A DNA stretch of 32,000 nucleotides from Bellilinea caldifistulae (GCF_001306055.1 NZ_LGHJ01000014.1:30001-62000), one strand, 5' to 3'; positions 3,589-20,478 are shown, counted from the stretch's first letter. A program made the numbers and translations. The notes: generated from the letters alone by a model not told the origin.

Positions 3589-4022
3589 ACGTCAACCTGC
3601 CACCTCGTCTGGCTGAAATCGTCAGCGATTTTGCGGAGTGCGAAGGGCGGGAAAAGCTGGAGTTGCTGCTGGATTATGCGCGCCGCTTCCCCCCGCTTCC
3701 TGCCGAATTCAATGCCGATTCGGATGCCGAAGACGTGCCGGAATGTATGACCCCGGTACGGATGAGCGCCAAATTGACCAACGGACGGCTGACCTTCGCC
3801 TTCGATGTGCCGGCCGAATCCCCGACGGTACGCGGCTATGCCATGATCATCATGGAAGGACTGAACGAAACAACGCCGGAGGAGATTTTAGCCATTCCGG
3901 CGGAGTTTTATTTGCAGATGGGCCTGCAGGATGTGCTGACCGCTCAGCGCCTGAACGGCATGGCTGCCATTCTGGCGCATGTCAAACGACGGGCAGCCGA
4001 GGCGTTGGAGAAAACCGACTAA
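3585..4022 (+). CDS. SufE/CsdE-family sulfur-acceptor protein
   Basis: The likely start is the GTG at 3585, which overlaps the rhodanese TGA (GTGA, 3585-3588), with GAGGGGAG at 3571-3578. The N-terminal part of the track ORF (3525-3584) lies inside the rhodanese gene. Sequence ...[25 protein letters not shown]...VPECMTPV...[19 protein letters not shown] matches the SufE fold pattern, including the conserved Cys. Confidence 0.8.
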
Positions 4023-5200
4023 ATCACGCCCAGTTTTTTGCCGACTTTTGCAAATGCTTCCAGCCCCTTGTCCAGATCATCCCGGCTATGGGAGGCGGAG
4101 ATCATCACACGGATGCGGGCTTTGCCGCGCGGTACGGTGGGGAAGCCAATCGCCATGGCAAAGACATTTTCTTCAAACAGTTCGCGGCTGAATTGCTGGG
4201 CTAACGGTGCTTCGCCCAGCATGATCGGCGTTATGGGGGTGACGCTTTTACCGGTATCAAAGCCCAGTCGTTTCATCTCGGCTTTGAAATAGCGGGCGTT
4301 TTCCCACAGGCGATCAACCAGATCGGTGGATTCTTCGAGTAAATCCACCGCGGCTATGGCGGCGGCCACATCCGGCGGGGTTACAGCGGAGGAAAACAGG
4401 AACGGACGTCCGCGCTGGCGCAGCCATTCCACAATCAGTGGGTCGCCGGCAACCACACCACCGACCACCCCAAAGGCTTTGGAGAGCGTGCCGACCTCCA
4501 CATCCACTTTGCCGTGCAGGTTGAAATGATCCACGATGCCGCGTCCGCCTTTACCCATGACCCCTTCGCCGTGGGCATCATCCACCATCAACATCACCCC
4601 GTGCTTGCTGGTTACTTCGTAAATTTGATCCAGCGGGGCAATGTCGCCATCCATGCTGAATACCCCGTCGGTGACGGCCAGGGCGCGGCGGTACTTGCCT
4701 TGATTTTCGAGAATCACCCGTTCCAGATCGGTCGGGTCACAGTGGGCGTAGCGGATGATCGGCGCGCCGGAAAGCCGGCAGCCATCAATGATGCTGGCGT
4801 GGTTCAATTCGTCGGAAAAAATGACATCTTCTTTGCCGACCAGCGCCGGAATGGTGGCAAGGTTGGCGGTAAAGCCGGACTGAAAGGTGATTGCTGCCGG
4901 TACTTTTTTGAAAGCCGCCAGCCTTCTTTCAAGTTCAAGGTGGATTTCCATCGTTCCGGCAATGGTGCGTACCGCTGCCGGTCCAACACCGTACCGGTCG
5001 AGAATCTCGCGGGCGGCTTCGATCAGGCGCGGGTGGTTGGCCAGCCCTAAATAATTATTGGAGCAGAAGTTCAGCACCCTTTTACCGTCCACAATCAGCC
5101 AGGCGCCTTGCGGCGAGCCAATCGTGCGGATGCGATTGTATAAGCCGTTCTCTTTGAGCCCTTCGATCTCTTGCTGGATCCAGGTTAAACGTTCGGTCAT
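4019..5200 (-). CDS. kbl: Glycine C-acetyltransferase (2-amino-3-ketobutyrate CoA ligase), PLP-dependent alpha-oxoamine synthase
   Basis: The start is set at the ATG at 5200 (MTERLTW...), with GAGGTGG upstream. The protein resembles E. coli Kbl end to end as I recall that sequence: [53 protein letters not shown] (PLP Lys), [31 protein letters not shown]. BioF-type activity cannot be excluded. Confidence 0.85.
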
Positions 5201-5254
5201 TGCCACCTCTTTTTGGAATTGGGAATGGGGAATTTGCAGGGACACTTTATTTCA

Positions 5255-6889
5255 TTATACCCCTTCCGTATCATCCGCTCCAAGATACCCCAGCCGTGTG
5301 AGTTCGGCGAGGATGGCTTTTTTTGCGGATGGCCGGATAAGCACCAGGCGGGGGGAAATTTCTTCGATGATATGGCGATTGAGGCGGCTTTTACGCAAAG
5401 CGGCCAGAATAGCGGGGTCTTCTACCCGCAGCAGCATGGCCTGCTGCAGGCGTACCTGAACACCATGCTGCTCCCAGCGCTCCACTGCTTGAAGTAGAGC
5501 CGGCGGCAGAGGATCTGCAACGGCTTTACGCAATAAACCGATCAGGTGGGCGCTGCGCAGTCCCTGCTGACGGGCGCGTTCCAGTGAAGAGGGGGTGATC
5601 TGATAGCGGTATGTGTCCGAATCGCCCGGAAGCCAGTGACAAAAACGGGCAATTTGATAGCGGAGGCTGCGGGGTGCCCGGCGTTCCACCTGAATGATAC
5701 CCTCACTGTTGACTCGGGTTGCGCCGGTTTCCTCTGGCAATCCGGCAGGAGGCCGGTTATTGAACAGGGCTTCGGCCCAGGCCGAAAAACGAAAAGCCAG
5801 CGGGGGAGTCTGGCTGTCACGGCTTGCCAGATCCATCCACCCCAGCCAGTGCAGCGGCGAAGTAATCAGGTAATTCAACAAAGCGCCGTCCACTTCATCC
5901 CAGCATTCAAAGCCGCGCAGGTACTGTCCGTCGCTGTACCGGCGGATGAACCACGAGTCGTAATCACCTGCCGGGCGTTGGAAATCGGGTTGTTCGTGCT
6001 TAACAGCCGTGATGAATGCCCGCAGGTCCCACCAAACTTCCGCCGGGAGTGATTGCAGTAAAGCCAACACGCGCTGGCGGGTTTGAAGGGGATCGTTGCG
6101 CCATTCCCCTTCAAAAGCCAGACCGGGCAGCATTCGCAAATCGTTATAAGCGGTTGAATTCAGCCAGGCCTGTGCCAGATTCAATAAGGCGGCCGCCCGT
6201 TGTGTTTCAAGGAACTGGCGCACCCGTTCAGGCACCGGCTTGTCGTGTTCATCTATCAAACCGGCGGCTACCAGCAAGCCGCGCAAATCGCGCACTGGCA
6301 GGTGGATATGAGGCGCAATCTCGGCTTCGTCCATGCCGATTCGCATCCCGGCCAGGAGGGTGCAGGCATCATCCAGTACCCGGTCGCTGACCGGTATCTC
6401 AACCGCGTAATCCTGAGGGAAGGCAGCCTGTCCCAGTACCGGTGGGGGAGGTGCATCGGGGTCCGGCAGTAAACGGACAAGATCATCCGGTATGTAGGCA
6501 AATTCTTGCGGTTCGGGCGGCAGGTTGAGGAAGGCTTTGCCGATCAGAGCGCGGTACCACAACATTTCGGCAGGAGAAATGGGATTGAGATCGGGCCTTT
6601 CGCGGTCGCGGCGGCCAATCCCAAAGGTGCGAATTTCGCCGTATTTGCGGCTGAACAATCCCCAAGGCAGGCGTCCCTGATGCACCCGCAGGTCTTGAAA
6701 GGCACGCCGGGCGCTCTCCGGCAGGCTGGCAATGATTTCTTCGATCAGCGGCCGGTCTAGCATGGCTTGAATGAGTTCCGGCAGGGCGTGGTGAACATCG
6801 CGGGCTTGGAGTTCCAACCCCCACAATCCGGCTACCATTTTGAGGAAACCGAGGTCATGACCTTGCAGGGTGTGAATCAATTCGGGCAT
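5255..6889 (-). CDS. Hypothetical 544-aa protein; the C-terminus resembles the XPB/Ssl2 N-terminal (Helicase_C_3-type) domain, with no helicase core
   Basis: Long uninterrupted ORF sitting between DagK (stop 6899) and kbl (start 5200) on the same strand. The C-terminal segment ...VQVRLQQAMLLRVEDPAILAALRKSRLNRHIIEEISPRLVLIRPSAKKAILAELTRLGYLG looks like the domain found N-terminal to XPB helicases and in actinobacterial helicase-associated proteins. No Walker motifs are visible. The family assignment is tentative. Confidence 0.5.
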   Translation of the reverse strand: MPELIHTLQGHDLGFLKMVAGLWGLELQARDVHHALPELIQAMLDRPLIEEIIASLPESARRAFQDLRVHQGRLPWGLFSRKYGEIRTFGIGRRDRERPDLNPISPAEMLWYRALIGKAFLNLPPEPQEFAYIPDDLVRLLPDPDAPPPPVLGQAAFPQDYAVEIPVSDRVLDDACTLLAGMRIGMDEAEIAPHIHLPVRDLRGLLVAAGLIDEHDKPVPERVRQFLETQRAAALLNLAQAWLNSTAYNDLRMLPGLAFEGEWRNDPLQTRQRVLALLQSLPAEVWWDLRAFITAVKHEQPDFQRPAGDYDSWFIRRYSDGQYLRGFECWDEVDGALLNYLITSPLHWLGWMDLASRDSQTPPLAFRFSAWAEALFNNRPPAGLPEETGATRVNSEGIIQVERRAPRSLRYQIARFCHWLPGDSDTYRYQITPSSLERARQQGLRSAHLIGLLRKAVADPLPPALLQAVERWEQHGVQVRLQQAMLLRVEDPAILAALRKSRLNRHIIEEISPRLVLIRPSAKKAILAELTRLGYLGADDTEGV

Positions 6890-7837: not shown

Positions 7838-7924
7838 CTGGATGTGGACGGGATGCGCTTGATTATACTCAATTCACCCAACGATATTGTAAGGTCAAAA
7901 GCCATTCTCGGCAGCAGGATTGCG

Positions 7925-7952
7925 TTGTGAATGAGCGTACATTTGTTATAAT
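7925..7952 (+). promoter_or_regulatory. Candidate sigma70-type promoter with extended -10 for the signalling island
   Basis: TTGTGA (7925-7930), a 16-nt spacer, then TGT-TATAAT (TG at 7944-7945, TATAAT at 7947-7952). It lies 34 nt upstream of the ATG at 7986. Confidence 0.45.
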
Positions 7953-7985
7953 TCTTTCAGACTTTCTCGTCTTCCGAGGCTGCAC

Positions 7986-8801
7986 ATGGCATTACGGGGC
8001 AATCTGCGCGATTTTTCCATCACCCAACTCCTCAATCTGATCAATCTGGCGCATAAAAGCGGTACTCTGGTGATTGAAGGCACCAGCGAAGTTGCTCAGA
8101 TTACCTTTCGGGAAGGAAAACTGGCCTATGCCCAGATTGGCAGCGAGGAGAACGATCTGGCAGCCATCTTGCAGCGCAGCCGTAAAATCACACCCAATCA
8201 GGCGCGGGTCATTCGAGAAAGAACCCGGAAGATGAGCGATAAGGAAGTCGGTCTCTTGTTGATCAATGCCGGTTACCTGACCCAGAAAGATATTTTGGAA
8301 AGTGTACAGAATTATTGTGTGGATGTCGTCCGCCGTTTGTTTACGTGGGTGGAGGGTTCGTTTAACTTCAACCCGGATCAATTAACCCCCGATGGTAAGA
8401 TTCCGGTGCGCATTGACCTGGAGAACCTGATTATCGAGGGTTCACGCCAGTTGCGCGAATGGGAGCAGCTGCAGGAAGAGATCCCCAGTCTGGATATGGC
8501 ACTCAAATTTACCGAGCGCCCGGGTACCAACATCCGCAACCTGAACCTGAGTTTGGAAGAATGGCGGGTGGTGCGTTACGTCAACCCAAAGAATACCATC
8601 CGGCAAATTGCACACGCCACCAAAATGAACGATTTGGAAATCCGCCGGGTGGTATATGCCTTGTTACAAGCCGGGTTAGTGGAACTTGTCCGCCCGGGCG
8701 GTGTGCCGTTGGGCGGAATGGTGCGTCCGTTTCAGACCACCAATAAGCAGGAGCAGGTATCTCTGCTCAACCGTTTGATCAACAAGATTCGCTCGATCTA
8801 A
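7986..8801 (+). CDS. DUF4388 (PATAN)-domain protein with a C-terminal winged-helix-like region
   Basis: The N-terminus LRGNLRDFSITQLLNLINLAHKSGTLVIEG..ITFREGKLAYAQ matches the DUF4388/PATAN signature (G-x-L-x-D-F-s-l-x-x-l-L-q-l-l...k-t-G-x-L). C-terminal segment: EEWRVVRYVNPKNTIRQIAHATKMNDLEIRRVVYALLQAGLVEL. Confidence 0.7.
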   Translation: MALRGNLRDFSITQLLNLINLAHKSGTLVIEGTSEVAQITFREGKLAYAQIGSEENDLAAILQRSRKITPNQARVIRERTRKMSDKEVGLLLINAGYLTQKDILESVQNYCVDVVRRLFTWVEGSFNFNPDQLTPDGKIPVRIDLENLIIEGSRQLREWEQLQEEIPSLDMALKFTERPGTNIRNLNLSLEEWRVVRYVNPKNTIRQIAHATKMNDLEIRRVVYALLQAGLVELVRPGGVPLGGMVRPFQTTNKQEQVSLLNRLINKIRSI

Positions 8802-8824
8802 ACCCTGTTTCCTAAGGAAGCACG

Positions 8825-9364
8825 ATGCAGACAGTCAAAATTGTAGTTACCGGGCCATTCAATGCAGGCAAGACCGAATTCATCCAATCCGTCAGCGAGA
8901 TTGATGTGGTCTCTACCGAACGAAAGATTACCTCGGCCGCCGAAAAGGTGAAGGAAAGCACCACCGTCGCATTGGATTTTGGCCGTATTACGGTTGACGA
9001 TGATCTGGTGTTGTATTTATTTGGAACGCCCGGACAGAAACGGTTCGATTTCATGTGGGAAATCCTCTCCGAAGGGATGCTCGGGTTTGTGGTCATGGTG
9101 GACAGTACCCGCCCGGAAACCTTCCGCGAAGCGCGCACTATTTTGGAAACCTTCCGGGCGTATGCTCCTACCCCTTACGTGGTGGCAGCCAATAAGCAGG
9201 ATTGCAAAGACGCATGGGACATTGAGGATATGCGGCTGGCGCTGCGACTGGATCCTAAAGTTAAACTGCTCTCGTGCGTTGCCAAAGATAAAGAAAATGT
9301 CAAAAAAGTCCTGCTGGAATTGCTCTACAGCATTCTGGAAGAGATGGGGGAGGGTAATTCGTGA
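8825..9364 (+). CDS. Small Ras-superfamily GTPase of the MglA/CvnD type (COG2229-like)
   Basis: P-loop GPFNAGKT (aa 10-17). G3 is FGTPGQ (Thr in place of the Ras Asp, Gln retained), as in MglA/CvnD-type proteins. G4 is NKQD (aa 123-126). 179 aa. AAGGAAG SD precedes the ATG. Confidence 0.85.
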   Translation: MQTVKIVVTGPFNAGKTEFIQSVSEIDVVSTERKITSAAEKVKESTTVALDFGRITVDDDLVLYLFGTPGQKRFDFMWEILSEGMLGFVVMVDSTRPETFREARTILETFRAYAPTPYVVAANKQDCKDAWDIEDMRLALRLDPKVKLLSCVAKDKENVKKVLLELLYSILEEMGEGNS

Positions 9365-9387
9365 GCCAACGGGGGAGTTAAACCAGC

Positions 9388-10191
9388 GTGTCATCCATTA
9401 CGACTGATCAGGGCATCCTTCATTACGAAGTCTACGGTCGCGGCAAACCGGTTATTTTGCTCCACGGCTGGCTGGGATCATGGGGGTTGTGGCAGGAAAC
9501 CATGACCTATCTGGGTCAGTATTACCGCACCTACGCGCTGGATTTTTGGGGTTTTGGTGAATCGGGTAAAAAACTGGATACCTACGAGGTTAGTGAGTTT
9601 GTTTCGCTGGTGGACCAGTTTATGGACAAACTGGGTATCATCAGCGCGCCGCTGGTGGGGCACAGCATGGGGGGTACGGTCAGCCTTTCGGTGGCGTTGC
9701 GCTATCCTCAGCGGGTTGAAAAGGTCGTGATCATCGGCTCACCGGTGGTTGGTTCTTCGCTGGCGCTGCCGCTCAAACTGGCCGGCTGGCGGGTAGTGGC
9801 ATTCCTTTTGTTTAGTTTTTTCCCGGTTTTCCGGGCTGCCATGCGGATTGCTTCGCCGACTATTTGTCGTGACCCGCGATTCCCGGATATGATGGATCGC
9901 GATCTCTCCCGCACCACTCTCGAATCCTTTTTAACCAGCATTGCCTCACTGCGCCGCACCGACCTGCGCAATGAGATTCACCGGATTCAGGTGCCGGTGA
10001 TGGGGATGTTTGGCGACCGGGATAACATTGTCAACCCAAACCAGGGCAAAGCCCTGCAAAAGGGTTTGCCCAACGCGCGCATCGAGCGTTATCCCAATGC
10101 CGGACATTTCATCATGCTCGATGAACCTCGTCCTTTCATGCTCACCTTGAAAGAATTTCTGGATACGCCCTCGTCCAACCCTGTCCCATGA
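9388..10191 (+). CDS. Alpha/beta-fold hydrolase (paralogue 1, intact Ser-Asp-His triad)
   Basis: GTG start with GGGGGAG 10 nt upstream. HGW oxyanion region (VILLHGWLGSW). The nucleophile elbow is GHSMGG (Ser93, codon AGC at 9664-9666). Acid candidate GDRDNIV and His in NAGHFIMLDEP. Confidence 0.85.
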   Translation: MSSITTDQGILHYEVYGRGKPVILLHGWLGSWGLWQETMTYLGQYYRTYALDFWGFGESGKKLDTYEVSEFVSLVDQFMDKLGIISAPLVGHSMGGTVSLSVALRYPQRVEKVVIIGSPVVGSSLALPLKLAGWRVVAFLLFSFFPVFRAAMRIASPTICRDPRFPDMMDRDLSRTTLESFLTSIASLRRTDLRNEIHRIQVPVMGMFGDRDNIVNPNQGKALQKGLPNARIERYPNAGHFIMLDEPRPFMLTLKEFLDTPSSNPVP

Positions 10192-10760
10192 ATCCTTCTC
10201 CGCGTTTGAAATACTCCCCTGACCTTAACAGCCTTATTCTGGAAGGTTTGACCGAGTTTCTCGGTGACCAAAAGCTTGAAATGCTGCTGCAAGCCATGCC
10301 TGCTGATCGGTTGCGCTTTGACCTGGAAAGCCTGCATGAGGCATTACGGGCCGCTTATGGCAGCCAATCGGCTGCCGGGATTCTGGTGCGGGCTGGCAGA
10401 GCAGCCTTTGCGCGGCTGTTGCTGAAATTTGCTGCCGAATTGGGATTTGAAGATCAGGGTTTCCGTCTGCTGGCACCCCGCCGCAAGATGGGGGTGGCTT
10501 TGCAGAATCTGGCAGACTGGCTTCAACGGCAGGGGGCTGGTAGATTTGAGGTGCGGCGTGTGACGAACGGCTGGCAGTGGCTCCATCGGGTTGATTTTGA
10601 AGGTCAGACCGACAACAGAGCGACAATGGCCTGTCCTTTCCTGCTGGGGATGCTGCAAGAATTATCCTACTGGGTCAGCAGCGGCCGTATTCACCCCATC
10701 CGCGAGGAAGCGCATTCCCAAGGCTGCCTGCTGGAAATCGAGTCGAAACCGCTGGATTGA
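10188..10760 (+). CDS. V4R (4-vinyl-reductase)-like small-molecule-binding domain protein
   Basis: Its ATG overlaps the upstream TGA (ATGA at 10188-10191). The C-terminal pattern ...MACPFLLGMLQELSYWVSSGRIHPIREEAHSQGCLLEIE resembles the V4R signature (C-x-f-x-x-G-x-l-x-g...E-x-x-C-x-x-x-G-x-x-x-C-x-F-x-i), with one Cys position changed. Assignment by eye only. Confidence 0.5.
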   Translation: MNPSPRLKYSPDLNSLILEGLTEFLGDQKLEMLLQAMPADRLRFDLESLHEALRAAYGSQSAAGILVRAGRAAFARLLLKFAAELGFEDQGFRLLAPRRKMGVALQNLADWLQRQGAGRFEVRRVTNGWQWLHRVDFEGQTDNRATMACPFLLGMLQELSYWVSSGRIHPIREEAHSQGCLLEIESKPLD

Positions 10761-10769
10761 GAGGACCGG

Positions 10770-12047
10770 ATGCTGAAAATCATTTTACAGTGTCCCCGTT
10801 ACCTGGAACCTTTCAACGAGCGCGCCCGTGATTTGAGAATTTTCAATAAACCATTGTGGCTTCAACAGCGCGATGTGCTGGCGCCTTACACCACCCGCGA
10901 ACTGGAATTGCCCCCCGAAGCGCGCCTGCCGCAAACCGCTGAGCCGTGTATCGTTTACCGTGATAATTTGTTTTTTGACGAGGGCTTTATGCAGGCCTTC
11001 ATGCGGGAAGCCCTGCGCCGGCCGTACCCCTCACGGGCGGCGTTGTCCATCCATGACCCTGCTTTCCGGGAACATTGTTTGCCGCTTTCTACTTCCTATA
11101 CGCCGGCGGGGGATATTTATCTGGCGGATTTGTGGTACTACCCGCGCGGTCCCGAGCCGAGCGCCGAACCACTGGTGGTGGATTTGCAGGCGCGGGAAAT
11201 CGGCTATTACCATGTTCCGACTTATATGGCGAGTGAATCGGGTGATCTGGTCTATCAGGTGCCGCTGCGCAGTCTGATTGCGATTGATTCCTGGGTGCAT
11301 ATTTTCATCGCCGATACGGTGTTTGGCCTGTTTGGTCGCGGGGCGCGTTTTGAAGATCGTCTCAACCGTGATCCTTTCTTCAAACTCAGCATTCTGGCAA
11401 CCGCTTTGTATGAGGGTAAGCAGGTGCTGGAATGTTCTAAACTGGTACGGGTGGGACGCAACTGCTCGATTGACCCTACTGCCATCATTCACGGCCCCAC
11501 CACCATCGGGGATAATGTGACCATCGGGGCCGGGGCGGTGATTGAAAATTGTATCATCGGCGACAATGTCAATGTCTCACAGGGCTGCCAGTTGATGCTT
11601 TCAGTGGTGGGGGATGGCACCTTTCTGCCGTTTCGGGCCTCGTTATTCATGACCACCATCATGGATAACAGCATGGTTGCCCAAAACACCTGCTTGCAGA
11701 TGTGCGTGGTGGGGCGGAATACTTTCATCGGTGCGGGTTCCACCTTTACAGATTACAACCTGATTCCCTCACCCATCCGGGCGCGGGATGCCTACGGCCA
11801 ATTGCAGCCATCCAACCGCCCGGTGCTGGGGGGATGTGTGGGTCACAATTGCCGGATTGGGGCTGGTATGATCGTCTACCCGGCGCGGATGATCGAATCC
11901 GATGTGATTTTGTTCGCTTCCAAAGAACGGCGGGTGATTGACCGGGACATCCGCTATGAGGACAGCGATCACCATCGCTTGAAGGACGGTCATCTGCATC
12001 CACGTTTGTACCCGCGCCCCGGTGAGGCAGGCGTCGAAAGCTGGTGA
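10770..12047 (+). CDS. Left-handed beta-helix (hexapeptide-repeat) protein with a GlmU-like but degenerate N-terminal domain
   Basis: The C-terminal half has consecutive hexapeptide repeats (IHGPTTIGDNVTIGAGAVIENCIIGDNVNVSQGCQL...VVGRNTFIGAGSTF...VGHNCRIGAGMIV). The N-terminal 230 aa (MLKIILQCPRYLEPFNERARDLRIFNKPLW...) occupies the place of a nucleotidyltransferase domain. It lacks an obvious G-x-G-T-R-(x)n-K signature. GAGAGGA SD. Confidence 0.65.
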   Translation: MLKIILQCPRYLEPFNERARDLRIFNKPLWLQQRDVLAPYTTRELELPPEARLPQTAEPCIVYRDNLFFDEGFMQAFMREALRRPYPSRAALSIHDPAFREHCLPLSTSYTPAGDIYLADLWYYPRGPEPSAEPLVVDLQAREIGYYHVPTYMASESGDLVYQVPLRSLIAIDSWVHIFIADTVFGLFGRGARFEDRLNRDPFFKLSILATALYEGKQVLECSKLVRVGRNCSIDPTAIIHGPTTIGDNVTIGAGAVIENCIIGDNVNVSQGCQLMLSVVGDGTFLPFRASLFMTTIMDNSMVAQNTCLQMCVVGRNTFIGAGSTFTDYNLIPSPIRARDAYGQLQPSNRPVLGGCVGHNCRIGAGMIVYPARMIESDVILFASKERRVIDRDIRYEDSDHHRLKDGHLHPRLYPRPGEAGVESW

Positions 12048-12104: not shown

Positions 12105-12133
12105 TTGCCAGAAATGGCGGTTTTGCGTAAGAT
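12105..12133 (+). promoter_or_regulatory. Candidate internal sigma70-type promoter for the REC-GGDEF/kinase sub-operon
   Basis: TTGCCA (12105-12110), a 17-nt spacer, then TAAGAT (12128-12133). This implies a leader of about 100 nt before the ATG at 12241. Confidence 0.35.
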
Positions 12134-12240
12134 TAAGTGTTGTACCCGATTTCCACCGTCTGGATCCCCGGCTGGGCGGAATGGGTTACGCAAGATGCTC
12201 CGGGGGAAAGCCCATGCCTGATCTCTTGAGGGAGGCACCC

Positions 12241-13131
12241 ATGAGTAAAGCCCGCCTGTTGATTGTGGAAGATGACGTGGATATTTCCAACATGCTGCGC
12301 ATTTATTTTACCTCGCAGGGCTATGATGTGGATATTGCCCCACGCGGTTCGGATGCGCTGGAAAAGACCCGTCAGGTCATGCCCCATTTGTTGATTCTGG
12401 ATATCATGCTGCCGGATATTGACGGTTACGAGGTCTGCCGGGTGCTGCGCACCAATACCCGCACCAGCCACATTCCGGTGCTGTTCCTGACCCAGAAGGA
12501 CGAGCGCAGCGATAAACTCAAAGGTCTGGAACTGGGGGCGGACGACTACATCACCAAACCCTTTGATATCGAAGAGCTGAAACTGCGTGTCCAGAATGCC
12601 CTGGCGCGTTCCGAACGGGAAAGCCTGACCGACCCGCAAACCGGCCTCCCCTCCGGCCGGTTGATTGAGGATCAACTGCGCAAATTGATCCGTCAGAACG
12701 ACTGGGCATTTCTGGATATTCGCATCAATCACTTTGAGCCATTCAAGGATGTTTATGGTTTTATTGCCGGCAATGATGTGCTGCGGTTCACCGCCATGTT
12801 GTTGGGCGAAGTGGTGGATGAGCTTGGTACACAAAATGACTTTATCGGCCATGTTGGCGGAGATAACTTTGTCGTTTCCACGACGGCTCAGGCGGGGGCT
12901 GCCATCAAGACCCGCCTGAAAGCACGGTTCAAGGAAGAAGTACTCTCGCATTACAATTTTTTGGACCGTCAGCAGGGTTTTGTGCTGGCTCCGGGTAAAG
13001 ACGGCCAGATGACCCCCACTCCCTTTATGACTTTGGCGGTTGGTTTGGTCTCACCGCTGACCCATCAATTCGCCGATATTCGCGAAATTACCGAGATTGC
13101 TGCCGAAGAACGCCGCCGCGATTCAGTTTAG
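12241..13131 (+). CDS. Response regulator: receiver domain fused to a degenerate GGDEF domain (GGDNF)
   Basis: The start is moved to the ATG at 12241 (MSKARLLIVEDD), with GAGGGAGG at 12228-12235. REC features: DD at 11-12, the phospho-acceptor in LLILDIMLPDIDG (D54), and K in YITKPF. The GGDEF-like domain begins at DPQTGLPSGR. Its signature is GGDNF (codons GGC GGA GAT AAC TTT, 12856-12870), and there is no RxxD I-site (TQND in that position). Confidence 0.85.
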   Translation: MSKARLLIVEDDVDISNMLRIYFTSQGYDVDIAPRGSDALEKTRQVMPHLLILDIMLPDIDGYEVCRVLRTNTRTSHIPVLFLTQKDERSDKLKGLELGADDYITKPFDIEELKLRVQNALARSERESLTDPQTGLPSGRLIEDQLRKLIRQNDWAFLDIRINHFEPFKDVYGFIAGNDVLRFTAMLLGEVVDELGTQNDFIGHVGGDNFVVSTTAQAGAAIKTRLKARFKEEVLSHYNFLDRQQGFVLAPGKDGQMTPTPFMTLAVGLVSPLTHQFADIREITEIAAEERRRDSV

Positions 13132-13152: not shown

Positions 13153-16100
13153 ATGGTGTTTGAAAACCCGCTCATTCTGGGTGTTGTACTGGCAGGCAGC
13201 GGTTTGCTTTTTTGGCTTGCAGCTGCCGGCCTGATTCGTTGGGTATCCCGTTCCCCAAGACCGCACTCGATCCTCGTCCCGGCTGAAGAAGCGGATAATC
13301 CGAACGCCGACCCGATTTTAATTGTGGAAGCCGGTGGAAGGCTGGCGTGGATCAATTCCACGGCCCGGCAGTTGTTTGGCTTGAAGGAAGGCGAATCCGC
13401 CAATCTGGAGGGCCTCTCTCGTAAAATCCGCCCGGCAAACGCGTTGTTGAATTTATGTGCCACAGATGGCCAAACCCGCCTGATAGTTGAAGGTAAGGCC
13501 ATCGAGGCAGCTTCTCAGCGTTTACCGTTTGGTCAGCCGGAATGGAGGTTAATCACCTTTCGCTCTGGAGAAAGCGGCGGGATGATGGGCGCAGCCCAAA
13601 CCGGTCTACTGCCAGCGCAGACCTTGCAGGTTTTCCTGGACCTGACACAGGCCATGGCTGCCAGTCTGGATGTGGAGCAAACCCTGTTCTCCATCCTTGA
13701 CAATCTGGATCGTTTGGTGCCGGCCGATTTGCGCGAGATCAACCTGTACGATGAAGAAAGCCAGACTTTCATCCCCTATCGCATGCTGGCGATGGCGGAT
13801 GGCGAACGCAAACTGCTCCTGGCCAGTGAACGCTACGGCCGGGAGGAGGGTCTTTCGGGGGTCATCGCTGTCTCGCGTCAGCCATTGCTGGTGCCCGATT
13901 TGGAAAAAGCCACCGACTTAAGCACAATCCTTGACCGGCGTAAATATCCGGTTCGTTCATTTCTGGGCGTGCCGTTAGCAATCGGCGAGCAGTTCATCGG
14001 TACCCTTGAGCTGGCTTCCTTTGCCGCAGATGCCTTTCAGCCGCAGGATCGTGATCTGTTGACTTTGATTTCCGGCCAGGTGGCGGTTGCCATTCATAAT
14101 GCATTACTTTACCGGCAGGAACAACGCCGAACCGCCGAGCTGAACGGCCTGGCTCAACTGGCGCAGGCGTTCAGTTCGGTGCGCGATACGCGCGGTCTGT
14201 TCGAGCGTTTGGTCAGCGCCATTCAACCACTCGTGCGGGTACAAATCCTCGGATTTTTGCTTTATAACGAAGCCAGCCGCACGCTTCAGGCTCAGGTGCC
14301 GTTTGCCGGAATTCCCGAACAATTTTTGGAGATGTATCGGATAGCGGTGCAGCCCGGCAGTCCCCTGGAAACCGCTCTGCTGGCTCAGGATGTGCTGATC
14401 AGCGACCATGCCGCAGAAGATGAGCGCTGGATCGAACTGGGATTACAGCCCATTGCGGTTGCTGCCGGCCTGCGGGATACGGTGATGATGCCCCTCGCGG
14501 TCAGCGGGCGGGTACTGGGCTATTTGCAGGCTGCCAATCATTTGCAGGAAGGCAGCAGTTTTAATCAGGATGAATTACATTTGTTGATGATCGTAGCCAA
14601 TCAGGTTGCCCCGATCATTGATAATGCGTCTTTGTTGCAACAATCCCGCCTGCGCGCTCAACGCGCCGAAGGTTTGCGGCGGATTGCCAGCCTGTCCAGT
14701 TCAGCGGCAACCCTGGATGAGATTCTCAAGTTCTCGCTGCAGGAGCTGGTGCGCCTTTTACAGGCCGACCTGGCTGCTGTATTTCTGCTGGATCAGAACC
14801 GGGTTGTCCTGCAATTGCACCGTCCTTCTCAATATGGCGATGCGGGGGAGGTGCCGGAGCGCCTGACCCGCCTGCTGGCGGAGGATGCTCAGTTTCCGTT
14901 TACTTCGGCCGGCAGCCAGCACATCATTCAGCTCAATCAAGCGGTAGAGGAAAAACCGATTGTTCCCTTTTACCAGCAGCTGATTCAATCGTGGAGGATT
15001 GAATCGCTGATTGTCGTGCCGTTGGTGGTACGAGATGAGGGCATTGGTGAAATCTGGATTGCCAGCCGCCAGCCCAACTTTTTTGACCCGGGTGATGTGC
15101 AACTGATGGCAACAGCTGCCGGGCAACTGGCGGGGGTGGTGGAACGCAGTTACCTGCTGATGCAGACGGATGAGACTCTCCGGCGGCGGGTGGAGCAGAT
15201 GACCTCCCTGACCCGCATCACCCGCGAATTAAGCACCTCGCTGGACTTGAAGCACCTGCTGCAACTGGTGTATGACGAAGCCCTGCGTACCACGCGCGCC
15301 GATTGCGGTACCATCCTGTTCTTTGAGCTGGAACAACCACCTGAGGCGACTCCGCAAATTCGCTTTTGGGTGGGCGACCCGCCGCCGTCGCAACTTTCTT
15401 CCCTTGAATTGCAGGTGATTGCCAGCGGAATGGGTTATGTGCTGCGCGATGTGCACAACCCGGATTATTACCTGCCCCACGAAGGCGTGCAGTCGGTGCT
15501 GCTGGTGCCGATTTACCATCAAGACCGGGCCGGCGGACTGATTTGCCTGCATAGCTCGGAGAGGGAACATTTCGATGAATCGGCGATGGACATTGCCCAA
15601 TCATTGGCGGCTCAGGCGACGATTGCGCTTTCCAATGCGGTGCATTACGAAGAACAGACCCGCCGTGGTACTTTACTCAAGCGCCAGTTGGATACCCTCG
15701 CTGAGTTGTATCAGGTTTCACGCTTTTTACGCCCCAATCAACCGCTGGAAAAAGCCTTGGAAGCCATTGCCGAAGCGATTGTGGATGCCACCCCCTTCCG
15801 GGCGGTGTTGATCAGCGTCTATGATCCGGACGGTAATTGTTTGCACCGGGTAGCCCATAAGGGAATTTCGCCTGAGATGTGGGAGGAATTGCGTTCGCGG
15901 GTTCAGCCATGGCGCGGCATATTGCAGTTATGCCAGCCGGAATATCGTGTGGGGGATGTGTACTTCATCCCCGCCGACAAGCAGCCGCTGGTGCCGGAGG
16001 AAGTTCACACCATTACCGTTTTGCCCGGCAGTGAACAGCAGGGCGAGTATTTATGGAATGCTGATGATTTTCTGCTTGCGCCGTTATATGACTCCAATGG

Positions 16101-19100
16101 GGAGCCGCTGGGGTTGATCAGCGTGGACGACCCGCGCGATGCCCGGCGCCCGGACCGTCCGACACTGGATGCGCTGGAAATTTTTGCGGTGCAGGCTTCG
16201 CTGCTGATTGAAAACCACCGTCATCTGGAAAAAACCCAGACCGAATTACGGCAATTGCTTGAAGAAAATCAACAATTGCGTACCTCGGCAGAGGCAGCCC
16301 GCCAGCAAATCCCGCAGTTGCTTCAGCGTCAGGTGGAGGATCTGCTCGAAATTCGCCGCCTGTTTCGGCAGGTGGAACGGGTGCGTGCCGGATTGGAAAT
16401 TGCCGCACAGGCCAGTTTGCAGCAAAATACCCGGGCTGCGCTGATCAGCATGGGACGTGCCTTGCTGGAACATTTTGCCTTGTCCATGGCGCTGGTTGCC
16501 GAGGGGGATGCTTCCGGCGGACGTCTGATCGAGGTAATCGGCGAAATCCCTCCCGGCAGCAATCCCGAAGCGTTGTTCGGTCAGCGCAATCCACTGCGTC
16601 AGGCTTTACTGGATGGCCGTCTCATCCTTTCGCCGCAGGTGGAAGAGGATCCTATCTGGCGCGGAACTCCGCTGTTGAACGGCTTGGGCAGTCGCAGTTT
16701 TGTGGTCTTCCCGTTTGAAATTTCCTCGGAGCACCGGGCGGCGGTGATGGTTTGCGGCGCAGAACCGATGGAAGCCTTTGAAGCCGAGGACGCTCAGGTT
16801 TACGAACAACTGTGCCGGCAGGTGAGTATCAGTCTGCAGAACCTCGAATTGCTTGCTGAAACCCGCCGGCGGTTGGGAGATGTTAATTTACTGCTGGAAT
16901 TTAGCCGCAAGTTGGGCAGTCTGGATACCGGTAGCATTCTGCAGAGTCTGCTGGAAAGCGCCTTACAAGTGCTGCCATCCGCCGATGCCGGCTGGGTGGG
17001 GTTGATCGAGGAAAATGGCGGCAGGATTGTGCCCATGCATGCAAGCGGTTACACGGATGTCGAGGCTTTGCTGCAAATTCGCTACGATCCGGAGCGGACA
17101 CCACCGCCATTGCCCCTGCGGGTTGTGCAATCGGGTAATCCACTGAGGGTAAATGAGATTCATTTCGCCGCAGATTACAACCTCTCCGCCGAGGATTTGA
17201 TACGATATCAGAAAGCCAGCCGCGCAAGACTTCCGATCTCGGTACTGGTCTTGCCAATCCGCCTTGGTGAACGCTGTATGGGCGTGCTGGTGTTGGAGAA
17301 TTTCGATCAGGCCGAGGCTTTCAGCGCCGAGCATGAAAGTCTGGCGCTCTCGCTCGCTCAGCAGGCTGCACTGGCGCTGGAAAATGCCCGTCTGTTCCGC
17401 TCCATTCAACAGCGGACGGCTCAGTTACAGGCGTTAACGCAGGTCTCTTCGACGATTACTTCCAGCCTGCAAACCGATGCACTGATCGCCAGCCTGCTGG
17501 AGCAATTGCAAAAGGTGGTGCCATTCGATACGGCAACCCTCTGGCTGCGCAAAGGTGATTGGATCGAAGTCGCTGCTGCGCGCGGTTTTGATGACGATCA
17601 GGCGCGGATCGGATTGACCGCGCGGGTTGAGGATAGTATCTTGTTTCAGGAAATGAGCCGTTCAGGTCTGGCCATTTCGGTTCCGGATGTCCGCGCTGAT
17701 GCCCGTTTTACCCGCCTGCTGGTGCCGGATTATCTTTCCTGGCTGGGGATACCCCTGATTGCCAAATCCGAATTGATTGGGGTGATCGCGCTGGAGAAAC
17801 GCGACCCTGATTTTTATACGGAGGATTACATTCAGGCGGCGATGACCTTTGCCGGGCAGGCAGCGGTAGCCTTAGAAAATGCGCGCCTGTTCGAGGAAAG
17901 TCAGCGCCGGGCTGCCGAACTCGATCAACGTTCCAGCCGTCTGGCTTTGCTCAACCGCTTCTCGGCTGATTTAGGCGCATCCCTGGAGGTGCTCCCCATT
18001 CTCCAACTGACCTGTGAGCGGCTGGCGGATGCGTTGGATGTTACACGGGTTGGAGCGGTGTTGATTGACGATCAGGAGCGCCTGCTTTTGGTCACGGAAA
18101 GTCCACCGGTTGAGGATGCCCTCCCCATAACCCTGCCGGCAATCCCGCTCATCCAGCAATTACGCGATTCGCAGGGCGTGTTCAACACCGAAGATGCGGA
18201 AGCAGAAACTGGATTGGCTGAATGGCGGACGGCGTTCCTCGCCAGCCGTAAGGTGCGCGCCCTGGTGATCATCCCCCTGATCAGCGGGCAGGAAATTTCT
18301 GGCTGGCTGATGCTGCAATCCGAGCAGAAAAAGCGGTTCACCGCCCAGGAAATTGAATTGGTGCGGACGATCAGCAATCAGGCGGCAATTGCCATGCAAA
18401 ATGCCCGCCGTTTTGAAGAAATCCGTACCCTCAAAGAGGATTTGGAGCGCCGGGTAGAAGAACGCACGGCGGCGCTGAGTCGGGAGCATCACAAATCCCA
18501 GACGATGCTCAAAGTGACCACCGAACTTTCGGCCAGTCTGGATATTCATCAAGTCCTCAGCCGTTCGTTGAGTGTTTTGAATGAAGCCCTGCAAATTGAT
18601 GAAAGTCTGATCGTCCGCGATGCCGGACGGGTCGTTGTTCGGGCCGGTCAACTTCTGGAAAGTTCGGCCTCACCCGAAGGCCATACCCTCGAACACCAGA
18701 TTCACCAGTATCTGATGCGGGTCCGAAAACCGCTGTGGATTGAGGATGTCCATCTGGATTCACGCTGGCAAACCGATCCGCATCAACCACCGGCATACCG
18801 CAGTGTTGCAGCCATTCCCCTGATTCTGGGCGAAGAATCGCTCGGTACACTTATGCTGCTCCATCGCGAAAAGGGGCATTTTCAAGCGGAGCAGACCGGG
18901 TTGTTGGAAGGGATTGCCCGCCAAATTGCCATCACCCTCAATAATGCCGAATTGTTTGGTTTAATCCGCGATCAGGCTGAAAACCTGGGTGCCATGCTGC
19001 GTGATCAGCAAATCGAGGCATCCCGCTCGCGCGGTATTCTGGAAGCCGTTGCAGATGGCGTGATTGTCACGGACGTCAATCAGATCATTACGTTGTTCAA

Positions 19101-20091
19101 TGCTTCTGCCGAAGCCATTTTGGAGGTAAACAGCAACAAGGTGATCGGTAAGCCGCTCGAACAGATTGCATCGTCGTTCGAGGGGAGTGGCAGTCAGTGG
19201 ATGACGGTGATTCAGCGCTGGTCGGAGGGAAGTTATCCCTCGCCGGGCGAAGCCTACGCCGAACAGATCACCCTCAATAACGGGCGGGTGGTCGCGCTGC
19301 ATCTGGCGCCGGTCATCTGGCGCAATGAATTTCTGGGTACCGTATCCATCCTGCGGGATATGACCCACCAGGTGCAGGTGGAACGTCTGAAATCGGAGTT
19401 CATCGCCAATGTCTCCCACGAACTGCGTACCCCCCTGACTTCAATTAAGGGATATACCGATATTTTGTTGATGGGCGCTGGTGGCGAGTTGACCGAAAAA
19501 CAGGTTCACTTCATTGAAATTTTACGAGAAAACGCAGAGCGCTTGAACATACTGGTTAATGACCTGCTGGATGTCTCCCGCATTCAATCCGGTAAAGTCA
19601 TGCTTGAGGCTCAGCCGCTGGATTTGCGCCTTCTGGCCGAAGAGATTTTGGGCGAAATGCGTCAGCGTTCGGTGGAAACCGGAAAACCGATGCAGTTTTT
19701 ACTGGAAGCGCCGCCTTCCTTGCCGCATGCGCGTGGAGACCGCGAACGCACCCTGCAAATTTTACGCAGTCTGGTCAGTAACGGCTTCAATTACACTCCC
19801 GAAAACGGTCAGGTGAAGGTACGGATTTCGGCTCGCGAACATGAGGTACAGGTAGATGTCATTGACAATGGGATTGGCATTCCGCCCAAAGACCATTCCC
19901 GCATTTTCGACCGTTTTTACCGTGGTGAAAGTCCTCTGGTCATGGCAACCCCCGGCACCGGTTTGGGACTGGCGCTTTCCAAAATTCTGGTCGAAATGCA
20001 GGAAGGCCGCATCTGGTTTTCTTCCACCGGGGTACCCGGTGAGGGCAGTGTATTTTCCTTTACTCTGCCAATCTACCCTTTGGAAGGTTGA
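13153..20091 (+). CDS. Giant sensor histidine kinase (2312 aa): N-terminal TM helix, PAS-like region, ten tandem GAF domains, PAS, HisKA, HATPase_c
   Basis: TM helix LILGVVLAGSGLLFWLAAAGLI (aa 7-28). PAS-like segment ILIVEAGGRLAWINSTARQLFGL. Ten units each end in a helix of the form (Q)xAxAxxNAxL(F/Y), near aa 320, 495, 668, 832, 1022, 1232, 1414, 1580, 1752 and 1934. PAS at about aa 1950-2070 (GILEAVADGVIVTD...). H-box SEFIANVSHELRTPLTSIKGY, with His2089 at codon CAC 19417-19419. N-box LVSNGFNYTP, G1 DNGIGIP, G2 GTGLGLALSK. AGGGA SD before the ATG. Confidence 0.92.
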   Translation: MVFENPLILGVVLAGSGLLFWLAAAGLIRWVSRSPRPHSILVPAEEADNPNADPILIVEAGGRLAWINSTARQLFGLKEGESANLEGLSRKIRPANALLNLCATDGQTRLIVEGKAIEAASQRLPFGQPEWRLITFRSGESGGMMGAAQTGLLPAQTLQVFLDLTQAMAASLDVEQTLFSILDNLDRLVPADLREINLYDEESQTFIPYRMLAMADGERKLLLASERYGREEGLSGVIAVSRQPLLVPDLEKATDLSTILDRRKYPVRSFLGVPLAIGEQFIGTLELASFAADAFQPQDRDLLTLISGQVAVAIHNALLYRQEQRRTAELNGLAQLAQAFSSVRDTRGLFERLVSAIQPLVRVQILGFLLYNEASRTLQAQVPFAGIPEQFLEMYRIAVQPGSPLETALLAQDVLISDHAAEDERWIELGLQPIAVAAGLRDTVMMPLAVSGRVLGYLQAANHLQEGSSFNQDELHLLMIVANQVAPIIDNASLLQQSRLRAQRAEGLRRIASLSSSAATLDEILKFSLQELVRLLQADLAAVFLLDQNRVVLQLHRPSQYGDAGEVPERLTRLLAEDAQFPFTSAGSQHIIQLNQAVEEKPIVPFYQQLIQSWRIESLIVVPLVVRDEGIGEIWIASRQPNFFDPGDVQLMATAAGQLAGVVERSYLLMQTDETLRRRVEQMTSLTRITRELSTSLDLKHLLQLVYDEALRTTRADCGTILFFELEQPPEATPQIRFWVGDPPPSQLSSLELQVIASGMGYVLRDVHNPDYYLPHEGVQSVLLVPIYHQDRAGGLICLHSSEREHFDESAMDIAQSLAAQATIALSNAVHYEEQTRRGTLLKRQLDTLAELYQVSRFLRPNQPLEKALEAIAEAIVDATPFRAVLISVYDPDGNCLHRVAHKGISPEMWEELRSRVQPWRGILQLCQPEYRVGDVYFIPADKQPLVPEEVHTITVLPGSEQQGEYLWNADDFLLAPLYDSNGEPLGLISVDDPRDARRPDRPTLDALEIFAVQASLLIENHRHLEKTQTELRQLLEENQQLRTSAEAARQQIPQLLQRQVEDLLEIRRLFRQVERVRAGLEIAAQASLQQNTRAALISMGRALLEHFALSMALVAEGDASGGRLIEVIGEIPPGSNPEALFGQRNPLRQALLDGRLILSPQVEEDPIWRGTPLLNGLGSRSFVVFPFEISSEHRAAVMVCGAEPMEAFEAEDAQVYEQLCRQVSISLQNLELLAETRRRLGDVNLLLEFSRKLGSLDTGSILQSLLESALQVLPSADAGWVGLIEENGGRIVPMHASGYTDVEALLQIRYDPERTPPPLPLRVVQSGNPLRVNEIHFAADYNLSAEDLIRYQKASRARLPISVLVLPIRLGERCMGVLVLENFDQAEAFSAEHESLALSLAQQAALALENARLFRSIQQRTAQLQALTQVSSTITSSLQTDALIASLLEQLQKVVPFDTATLWLRKGDWIEVAAARGFDDDQARIGLTARVEDSILFQEMSRSGLAISVPDVRADARFTRLLVPDYLSWLGIPLIAKSELIGVIALEKRDPDFYTEDYIQAAMTFAGQAAVALENARLFEESQRRAAELDQRSSRLALLNRFSADLGASLEVLPILQLTCERLADALDVTRVGAVLIDDQERLLLVTESPPVEDALPITLPAIPLIQQLRDSQGVFNTEDAEAETGLAEWRTAFLASRKVRALVIIPLISGQEISGWLMLQSEQKKRFTAQEIELVRTISNQAAIAMQNARRFEEIRTLKEDLERRVEERTAALSREHHKSQTMLKVTTELSASLDIHQVLSRSLSVLNEALQIDESLIVRDAGRVVVRAGQLLESSASPEGHTLEHQIHQYLMRVRKPLWIEDVHLDSRWQTDPHQPPAYRSVAAIPLILGEESLGTLMLLHREKGHFQAEQTGLLEGIARQIAITLNNAELFGLIRDQAENLGAMLRDQQIEASRSRGILEAVADGVIVTDVNQIITLFNASAEAILEVNSNKVIGKPLEQIASSFEGSGSQWMTVIQRWSEGSYPSPGEAYAEQITLNNGRVVALHLAPVIWRNEFLGTVSILRDMTHQVQVERLKSEFIANVSHELRTPLTSIKGYTDILLMGAGGELTEKQVHFIEILRENAERLNILVNDLLDVSRIQSGKVMLEAQPLDLRLLAEEILGEMRQRSVETGKPMQFLLEAPPSLPHARGDRERTLQILRSLVSNGFNYTPENGQVKVRISAREHEVQVDVIDNGIGIPPKDHSRIFDRFYRGESPLVMATPGTGLGLALSKILVEMQEGRIWFSSTGVPGEGSVFSFTLPIYPLEG
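13615..18957 (+). other. Array of ten GAF-domain-coding units inside the kinase gene, split 5+5 by a coiled-coil-like insert
   Basis: Approximate unit boundaries in aa: 155-320, 330-495, 505-670, 680-835, 845-1025, then a heptad-like Q/R/E/L-rich linker (1025-1090, TQTELRQLLEENQQLRTSAEAARQQIPQLLQRQVEDLLEIRRLFRQVERVRAGLE), then 1090-1235, 1240-1415, 1420-1582, 1590-1755 and 1780-1935. Boundaries were estimated by eye from the recurring C-terminal helices. Confidence 0.7.
19384..20076 (+). other. HisKA + HATPase_c catalytic core of the giant kinase
   Basis: H, N, G1 and G2 boxes are all present and canonical (see the CDS entry), so the kinase is predicted to be catalytically competent. Confidence 0.85.
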
Positions 20092-20097
20092 GTGGAA

Positions 20098-20478
20098 ATG
20101 GCGAAAATTTTAGTGGCTGAGGATGAAAAGGATATCCGTGACTTGCTCTCATTTACCTTGCAATTTGCCGGTCACACTGTGATTACCGTGAACAACGGGG
20201 AGGAAGCCTGGCAGGCTGCTCCCAGCGTCATGCCGGATTTGATTTTAATGGATGTGCGCATGCCGCGAATGACCGGTTATGAGGCCTGTCAACGCATCAA
20301 AGCCGACCCGCAAACCGCTCACATTCCGGTGGTGTTTCTCTCTGCCAAAGGGCAGGAAGCCGAGATTCAACAAGGCCTGCAAGCCGGCGCCAGCGAGTAC
20401 CTGCTGAAGCCCTTTGCGCCGGATGAGCTGACCCGCCGGGTGGCAGAATTGCTGGAACGCTTTGCCCAAAAGAAGTAA
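20098..20478 (+). CDS. Single-domain CheY-like response regulator
   Basis: The ATG at 20098 (MAKILVAEDEKD) lies 6 nt after the kinase TGA (20089-20091), with GGAAGG 10 nt upstream. The track's GTG at 20092 is an alternative. Phospho-acceptor in LILMDVRMPRMTG. Conserved S (FLSAKG) and K (YLLKPF). No output domain. Confidence 0.9.
   Translation: MAKILVAEDEKDIRDLLSFTLQFAGHTVITVNNGEEAWQAAPSVMPDLILMDVRMPRMTGYEACQRIKADPQTAHIPVVFLSAKGQEAEIQQGLQAGASEYLLKPFAPDELTRRVAELLERFAQKK

Follow-up and report, generated by a model that had tools for sequence, protein, structure and literature searches.

The 32-kb stretch of Bellilinea caldifistulae DNA analysed here (NZ_LGHJ01000014.1:30001-62000; the whole stretch is called the window) carries an operon-like cluster in which the gene for a small Ras-superfamily GTPase, assigned to the MglA family, stands between the genes of a PATAN protein and an alpha/beta hydrolase and is followed by the gene of a standalone V4R-family protein. 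Comparison with related loci established PATAN as the invariant partner of the GTPase and V4R as a frequent but dispensable third component. The best explanation, to which we give a probability of roughly 0.6, is that the PATAN protein and a Group 5 MglA GTPase form a switch that has the V4R protein as an accessory input or adaptor and is coupled to a histidine kinase branch. This explanation builds directly on the identities of the genes, on the modelled fold of the V4R protein, on the conserved gene order and on the retention of V4R after repeated loss of its neighbours.

The PATAN-GTPase pair and its conserved neighbourhood

Five tightly packed open reading frames (ORFs) occupy positions 7986-12047, all read from the + strand of the window and spaced by 23 nucleotides (nt), 23 nt, a 4-nt ATGA overlap and 9 nt. 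They encode a PATAN (DUF4388/PatA_N) protein of 271 amino acids (aa; 7986-8801; Pfam PF14332, E value 8.8e-27), the 179-aa GTPase (8825-9364; recognised by its motifs and Pfam), a 267-aa alpha/beta-fold hydrolase with a GTG start and a GHSMGG nucleophile elbow (9388-10191; Abhydrolase_1, E 9.5e-33), the divergent 190-aa V4R-family protein (10188-10760; recognised by family profile and predicted fold), whose start overlaps the hydrolase stop codon in the ATGA, and a 425-aa protein with a C-terminal left-handed beta-helix (hexapeptide, LbH) domain (10770-12047; Hexapep, 3.7e-15). The genes, the GTPase motifs and the 23-nt gaps described in an earlier sequence-only reading of this DNA were all reproduced by ORF calling and translation.

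The translated GTPase contains GPFNAGKT at residues 10-17, FGTPGQ at 66-71 and NKQD at 123-126, and it matched the Pfam models ATP_bind_1 (6.7e-20), Ras (2.5e-12) and Arf (6.6e-9) as well as Arf, Rab and MglA structures in the PDB at ~1e-6. In the classification of Wuichet and Søgaard-Andersen (2015, PMC4316618), Groups 2-5 of the MglA family are defined by a GTPGQ G3 motif and by a Thr standing in for the intrinsic arginine finger next to the G2 Thr. Deviating G4 (NxFD) and G5 (DAR) motifs set Group 2 (CvnD) and Group 3 apart, and Groups 1, 4 and 5 keep a canonical [NT]KxD G4 (PMC4316618). As in Groups 2-5, the window GTPase has GTPGQ as its G3 (F66-Q71), with Thr replacing the Asp of Ras, and its G2 region (E44-S-T46-T47-V-A-L-D-F) has Thr and no Arg before the G2 Thr. 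Its G4 is the canonical N123-K-Q-D126 and no DAR motif accompanies it, which fits Groups 1, 4 and 5 and not Groups 2/3. The marks of Group 1, an intrinsic arginine finger in G2 and a TVPGQ G3, are absent from the translation, which has TT and GTPGQ instead.

Table S2 of the same study (PMC4316618) lists, among Group 5 proteins of the Chloroflexi, the 179-aa MglA ANT_06780 of Anaerolinea thermophila in the arrangement <MglA><PATAN>. The window GTPase shares this length and the PATAN neighbour, and it has 87% identity with an Anaerolinea relative. It is also an 'orphan' MglA by the definition used there, that is, one with no MglB within four genes, as are 59 of the 449 MglA proteins surveyed (PMC4316618). 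On its motifs, length and PATAN neighbour, the window GTPase is therefore assigned to Group 5. The name 'MglA/CvnD-type' given to it by the sequence-only reading holds in its MglA part, which agrees with GTPGQ, TT and NKQD, and fails in its CvnD part, the G4 being NKQD and not NxFD with DAR. In Groups 2-5, an arginine finger is missing from the MglA proteins and is not provided by the MglB partners either (PMC4316618). Since the window GTPase lacks a built-in arginine finger and keeps the catalytic Gln, it must rely on partner proteins to cycle.

The PATAN protein scored 94 bits against PF14332 (cut-off 25), its residues 4-160 being aligned with profile positions 1-122, and its domain holds an insertion of ~35 residues that is consistent with the described helical insertion. 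The C-terminal region gave an HTH_9 match of 1.6e-4, below the cut-off, together with weak MarR matches over residues 175-238, and it probably forms a winged-helix domain. No significant match was obtained when the PATAN profile was compared with the PDB, the weak ones being to MarR and to the N-terminal domain of PilB. The helical insertion (residues 54-111) gave a non-significant profile match (E ~0.5) to this N-terminal domain of the type IV pilus ATPase. The possibility that PATAN is a hidden Roadblock domain was ruled out by an hhalign probability of 0.3%.

PATAN genes near MglA genes of Groups 1 and 5 have already been published; Group 5 genes of Aquificae, Deinococci and cyanobacteria are commonly arranged as MglB>PATAN>MglA>, and PATAN>MglA> without MglB was tabulated in 2015 for Anaerolinea, Chloroflexus, Roseiflexus and Herpetosiphon (Table S2, PMC4316618). 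The pair without MglB, which had been presented as an unusual layout, is thus a catalogued one in the Chloroflexi. The Group 5 modules of this same phylum (ANT_06780, Chloroflexus Cagg_2798 and Roseiflexus RoseRS_2140) are like the window pair in having a GTPase of 176-179 aa with GTPGQ, TT and NKxD, an adjacent PATAN gene and no MglB within four genes. That catalogue (PMC4316618) covered MglA, MglB and PATAN only, and the V4R, hydrolase, LbH and GAF-kinase neighbours are not described in it.

Gene neighbourhoods were compared in two samples of relatives, the loci of which are labelled with L-numbers. For the GTPase-centred sample, a scan of one genome per species gave more than 500 matches, and the best 80 loci, all from Anaerolineae or unclassified Chloroflexota, were analysed by ORF calling and hidden Markov model (HMM) searches; the 77 loci with enough downstream DNA were counted as informative. 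A PATAN gene lies directly upstream of the GTPase gene in all 80 genome loci and in 13/13 close metagenome loci, and a V4R gene lies downstream of the pair in 65 of the 77 informative loci. The full order PATAN-GTPase-hydrolase-V4R-LbH was found in 52 of the 77, PATAN-GTPase-V4R without hydrolase or LbH in 13 loci of the best 80 and additionally in L008 and L011, hydrolase-LbH without V4R in six, and neither V4R nor hydrolase-LbH in another six, where a GAF kinase or REC gene directly follows the GTPase gene. L008 and L011 are minimal three-gene units, the next gene being on the other strand. For the V4R-centred sample, ten family members on long contigs were picked blind to context; nine of them belonged to PATAN-GTPase operons, even those with 20-32% identity to the window V4R, and the tenth (L007) was directly after a Roadblock gene. 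In L009 the hydrolase gene is in four ORF pieces and the PATAN gene in two while the V4R gene is intact, and L016 has its V4R gene in two separate ORFs; pseudogenes or assembly errors may account for both cases.

Stripped PATAN-GTPase-V4R loci are scattered in several places on the trees of V4R and of PATAN (neighbour-joining, without support values), and the nearest relatives of four loci (L032, L058, L065 and L085) carry the full operon. By Fitch parsimony on the PATAN tree, hydrolase presence changed at least seven times and V4R presence at least six times; the hydrolase, present in 59/77 informative loci, has been lost repeatedly. Adjacency of the GTPase and V4R genes thus extends well beyond one genome, both in the 65 loci and in the stripped loci of several lineages, and the retention of V4R beside the GTPase when other neighbours were lost argues against its being merely a member of a hydrolase/LbH unit. 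Across the best 80 loci, identity ranges from 82 to 100% for the GTPase, from 44 to 90% for PATAN and from 20 to 67% for V4R; the GTPase range also covers the more than 500 species-level matches.

The V4R-family protein

Direct searches with the 190-aa protein against Pfam (E up to 0.1), NCBIfam and the PDB all ended without a match. With a profile built from the window's clade, a search of 1.8 billion representatives yielded 467 clusters at E up to 1e-3, 277 of them at E up to 1e-10, and the best 150 listed clusters were all standalone proteins of ~140-220 aa. Individually, 68 of 103 sampled family members matched Pfam V4R (PF02830), with a best E value of 7e-13, and the family profile matched MJ1460 (2osd) at E 0.018; the TRAPP model (PF04051) matched none of the 103.

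The final AlphaFold2 model, based on an alignment of 45 sequences, reached a predicted local distance difference test (pLDDT) score of 89 and a predicted template modelling (pTM) score of 0.87; it superseded a first model from 12 sequences (pLDDT 76), which gave the same fold matches. Its predicted elements are helices followed by strands E119-125 and E128-134, helix H149-163 and strands E171-174 and E179-185, arranged as two layers in which the helices pack on a four-stranded antiparallel sheet. In Foldseek comparisons with the PDB, H-NOX proteins were matched at a template modelling (TM) score of ~0.6 over the full length, the V4R sensor domains of MopR and PoxR at ~0.5, and Bet3-family subunits of TRAPP at 0.42-0.54 with the final model and 0.42-0.59 with the first; probabilities were 0.97-1.00 for Bet3/TRAPP and H-NOX and 1.0 for MopR. 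The H-NOX, V4R and Bet3 folds are known relatives (PMC2253512, PMC10933270). The V4R/Bet3-like fold proposed for the 10188-10760 product was accordingly recovered in a model of pLDDT 89 and by Foldseek, and the designation 'V4R-like' is upheld through the family (68/103) and the fold, the protein itself having no Pfam or NCBIfam match. As judged from the model and the family profile, it is a divergent V4R-family member with a V4R/Bet3/H-NOX fold and no Bet3 orthologue.

Invariant or near-invariant residues of the family are G64, R68, G70, R71, C149, G154, L156, Q157, E158, W162 and G166, which give a signature of RxGR in a long helix, GxLQE, W162 and usually a terminal P-L-D/E. The last residue is acidic in 79/103 members, and 65/103 end in P-hydrophobic-D/E. 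Two conserved GxxxG glycine doublets, in helices alpha2 and alpha5, characterise the V4R/Bet3 superfamily (Podar 2008, PMC2253512). The first helix of the present family has G64 and G70 (Gx5G), and the second has G154 only, with the invariant Q157 of GxLQE at the position of the second Gly. V4R and TRAPPC3 bind ligand or Zn (PMC2253512, PMC10933270). Known ligand-sensing modules, the V4R domains of MopR, PoxR and DmpR and the H-NOX sensors, are like the window protein in their fold (Foldseek probability 1.0), and the family carries a Cys/Glu pattern like that of the MopR/PoxR zinc site. They differ from the window protein in that it is standalone, with no AAA+ or HTH output, GxLQE replaces the second GxxxG and its clade has lost one Cys.

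H-NOX haem sensors carry a proximal His and a YxSxR motif that binds the haem propionates. Neither a conserved His nor Tyr-x-Ser-x-Arg was found among the conserved columns of the V4R family, and no HNOB Pfam match was obtained in the 103 members; an H-NOX haem sensor, although the best fold match, was therefore ruled out, the family being without the conserved haem ligands.

A 99%-identical B. caldifistulae protein is named 'type VI secretion system baseplate subunit TssF' by NCBI, a name for which NCBIfam gives no match. The NCBI start of this counterpart is 20 codons later, giving 170 aa, while all relatives have 190 aa with a conserved N-terminus and the ATGA overlap. Both the name and the start look wrong.

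Roadblock genes, mechanism and rival readings

Pfam searches of all sizeable ORFs of the window found neither a Roadblock (Robl_LC7) nor a DUF742 (CvnC) gene, and a Roadblock HMM run on all six-frame ORFs of at least 50 aa in the window found no Roadblock, the best E value being 7.8. This negative result is meaningful because the same HMM picks up divergent Roadblock genes beside distant GTPases in L105, L106 and L108. The GTPases of these loci are 37-43% identical to the L008 query and are followed directly by a Roadblock ORF that overlaps the GTPase stop codon; they are classical MglA-MglB pairs and serve as a positive control for the search. A metagenome scan with a divergent 196-aa GTPase returned mostly the same clade again, plus distant MglA-Roadblock pairs. 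The absence of a Roadblock/MglB or DUF742 gene, which the sequence-only reading had noted at the locus, thus holds for the whole window.

In this respect the locus differs from both well-known systems with a related GTPase. The MglA-MglB polarity module of Myxococcus xanthus and Thermus thermophilus (Group 1) is alike in its single-domain Ras-like GTPase with Thr for the G3 Asp, and in some species PATAN proteins are encoded nearby (PMC4316618); it has, however, an intrinsic arginine finger, TVPGQ and an adjacent MglB/Roadblock gene, where the window has TT, GTPGQ and no Roadblock. The conservon CvnA-D (Group 2) likewise has a GTPGQ GTPase of the ATP_bind_1 type that is encoded with a sensor histidine kinase and is likely the output or switch in a system linked to the kinase. 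CvnD, in contrast, has NxFD and DAR where the window GTPase has NKQD, and CvnB (Roadblock) and CvnC (DUF742) are absent in the window, the partners there being PATAN and V4R.

No Roadblock gene was found within +/-8 kb of the GTPase gene in 75 of the 80 relatives. The other five (L023, L050, L057, L074 and L085) have a Roadblock-V4R paralogue-REC triple upstream on the same strand (positions 4344-6230 in L050), with the Roadblock gene ~3.3-3.7 kb upstream of the GTPase gene and the end of the triple ~0.9 kb before the PATAN start. The Roadblock protein is genuine (Pfam Robl_LC7 5.7e-18, PDB 7f8m 2.5e-34, CvnB5 2e-8, MglB 9e-3), and the V4R paralogue encoded directly after it matched Pfam V4R at 3.9e-12. 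In L007 (6614-7636) a Roadblock-V4R pair, followed by a GT2 glycosyltransferase gene, stands alone. Roadblock-linked V4R proteins form one tight clade nested within the operon V4R family, which points to essentially one duplication event. The pairing of Roadblock with V4R is a second link of this family to GTPase regulators. In A. thermophila an orphan MglB (ANT_03760) is encoded apart from the PATAN-MglA pair ANT_06780 (Table S2, PMC4316618), which makes a Roadblock regulator outside the window likely. A Roadblock protein encoded elsewhere likely takes part in the present system.

Under the preferred explanation, the core would consist of the PATAN/winged-helix protein as obligate partner of the Group 5 GTPase that lacks an arginine finger. 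The standalone, fast-evolving V4R protein would be an input or adaptor subunit, which would most likely bind a small hydrophobic ligand or a metal, as V4R, Bet3 and H-NOX-fold proteins do, and would pass its ligand state to the PATAN-GTPase switch, either directly or jointly with a Roadblock/MglB protein whose gene lies elsewhere. Plausibly, the ligand of V4R is made or removed by the co-translated alpha/beta hydrolase. The switch would be linked to a two-component branch made up of a REC-GGDNF regulator, a giant GAF histidine kinase and a REC protein; the GAF histidine kinase gene is found after the GTPase gene even in loci without V4R, hydrolase and LbH (L034, L069 and L087). Physical contact between PATAN, GTPase and V4R, the sensing of a ligand and the direction of signalling are what we infer for this switch.

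Several points weigh against this explanation. V4R is missing in 12 of the 77 informative loci (~15% of lineages, at least six losses), PATAN in none, so V4R is not essential to the switch. A V4R protein that diverges this fast (20-35% identity) next to a GTPase that is 82-100% identical is not what is usually expected of a subunit docking on a catalytic surface under conservation. The window's clade lacks one Cys of the family triad, owing to a deletion of 4-5 residues, and also the optional CxxC, so metal binding may be degenerate here. All comparative evidence comes from one class, the Anaerolineae; the gene order of relatives is partly inherited rather than a product of independent selection, and the neighbour-joining trees carry no support values.

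The real regulator may be an orphan MglB/Roadblock protein with its gene at another place in the genome, PATAN and V4R being effectors or localisation factors, and we consider this nearly an even proposition. It accords with the orphan MglB that A. thermophila has besides its PATAN-MglA pair and with the MglB-PATAN-MglA layout common in Group 5 of Aquificae, Deinococci and cyanobacteria (PMC4316618), and also with the Roadblock genes within ~3.7 kb of the GTPase gene in five of the 80 relatives; the 75 relatives that have none within +/-8 kb stand against it, and it leaves the retention of V4R beside the GTPase unexplained. This possibility is compatible with the preferred explanation and not exclusive of it. 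That V4R instead belongs to a small-molecule or lipid unit with the hydrolase and the LbH protein, merely co-transcribed with the GTPase and without a direct role in the switch, appears improbable. The ATGA overlap of the V4R and hydrolase genes, the hydrolase-V4R-LbH order in 53/77 loci and the known binding of hydrophobic ligands by V4R domains (PMC2253512) would all be expected from such a unit. On the other side, the 13 loci together with L008 and L011, which represent several lineages, lack hydrolase and LbH yet have V4R directly behind the GTPase, six loci have hydrolase-LbH without V4R, and the V4R paralogue accompanies Roadblock, a GTPase regulator, and not the hydrolase.

A role like that of TRAPP, in which V4R itself, alone or with PATAN, would be the GTPase's guanine nucleotide exchange factor (GEF) or GTPase-activating protein (GAP), as Bet3 acts on Rab, is judged unlikely. 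The resemblance to the TRAPP core on Rab1/Ypt1 lies in a protein of the Bet3/V4R superfamily being encoded with a Ras-superfamily GTPase in conserved adjacency, and in some relatives with a Roadblock-V4R pair, Roadblock being a fold relative of the longin subunits of TRAPP. Homology of V4R with Bet3 is established (PMC2253512), and the predicted fold matches TRAPP subunits. The C-terminus of Bet3 aids nucleotide release (PMC10152722), to which the acidic C-termini of the family (79/103; P-hydrophobic-D/E in 65/103) are a parallel only. MglA proteins of Groups 2-5 and their MglB partners are without an arginine finger, and the V4R family has the near-invariant R68 and R71. Bet3 presumably has an Arg at the position of this G/R motif of the V4R helix. 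The motif may, however, be a helix-packing motif of the superfamily with conserved glycines in helix alpha2 (PMC2253512). The Rab interface of TRAPP is formed mainly by the longin subunits Trs23 and Bet5, Bet3 adding little and chiefly through its C-terminal tail; the Trs23-Bet5-Bet3 subcomplex is without GEF activity until Trs31 is added, and TRAPP needs four different subunits (PMC10152722). The window V4R, by contrast, has no Pfam TRAPP match, nor has any of the 103 members, and its model reaches TM scores of only 0.42-0.54 to TRAPP subunits. In structure it comes closest to H-NOX and MopR, which sense ligands; the window is without a Roadblock or longin gene, and 15% of lineages have lost V4R while their GTPase has stayed near-identical. 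The sequence-only reading had proposed the V4R-GTPase pair as an analogue of TRAPP and Rab. As the Rab platform is dominated by longin subunits (PMC10152722), a pair without Roadblock or longin is not a close analogue of TRAPP, and the proposal was overstated. It is quite doubtful, though conceivable, that V4R and Roadblock/MglB proteins of Anaerolineae, perhaps with PATAN, would form an exchange or GAP complex for the MglA-type GTPase as a bacterial counterpart of the TRAPP core. If this were true, the partnership of Bet3/V4R, Roadblock/longin and a Ras-like GTPase would predate eukaryotes and would not be confined to Asgard archaea.

Full-text searches of the literature found no account of a bacterial V4R-MglA or V4R-Roadblock gene linkage. 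The PATAN-MglA module was already known; its widely conserved V4R component is new here, and V4R, the hydrolase and the GAF kinase are added as components to the Group 5 MglA/PATAN systems. To our knowledge, the only tie of prokaryotic V4R proteins to GTPase biology so far has been their structural homology to the TRAPP subunit Bet3. In Asgard archaea, operons that join a GTPase gene to a Roadblock, longin or TRAPPC3 gene are generally not seen (PMC10933270), which leaves no way of matching partners by genome context there. Anaerolineae offer a compact and widely conserved operon that encodes V4R with a Ras-like GTPase, and in some species a Roadblock-V4R pair beside it. The question of a pre-eukaryotic cooperation between Bet3-type proteins and small GTPases becomes directly testable with four small soluble proteins.

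Remaining genes of the locus

The operon is preceded by a promoter-like site on the + strand (7925-7952; TTGTGA, 16 nt, TG-TATAAT; 10/12 matches with an extended -10), 34 nt before the PATAN start codon and inside the sole sizeable upstream intergenic gap (7838-7985). It is weak evidence, since such sites in the region total no more than expected by chance. In the 425-aa protein, the LbH domain gave an LbH_EIF2B match of 2.1e-12, below the cut-off, the best models being of the eIF2B-epsilon, GMPPB and GlmU type, and its N-terminal 220 residues had no match in domain searches. The LbH gene travels with the hydrolase gene in most loci and co-occurs with the hydrolase, not with V4R. An anti-phage defence system was ruled out, PADLOC giving no meaningful match.

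Four further genes begin ~190 nt past the LbH gene and run on the + strand to 21266 with gaps of 0-21 nt. They encode a response regulator with REC and a degenerate GGDEF domain (12181-13131; Response_reg 5.5e-28, GGDEF 4e-10), a 2312-aa multi-GAF/PAS histidine kinase (13153-20091; called as an ORF, with orthologues that have many GAF domains), a single-domain receiver (REC) protein (20092-20478; Response_reg 6.1e-30), whose start codon abuts the kinase stop codon, and a second alpha/beta hydrolase of 261 aa (20481-21266; Abhydrolase_1 1.3e-23). Because GGDNF replaces GG[D/E]EF, the response regulator is probably no active cyclase, and its true start is likely M21 (12241), since its relatives have 296-300 aa; the gene was found downstream in most loci. 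A promoter-like site with 9/12 matches lies ahead of it at 12105-12133. The kinase, REC and second hydrolase genes are separated by gaps of 0-2 nt, and the REC-hydrolase tail also occurs in L035, L040, L047 and L097. Upstream of the operon, divergent genes on the - strand (4019-6889) encode a class I/II aminotransferase and a 544-aa Helicase_C_3 protein; distant relatives (L008, L011 and the contig of P0283) have this pair upstream of the operon as well, with varying genes in between.

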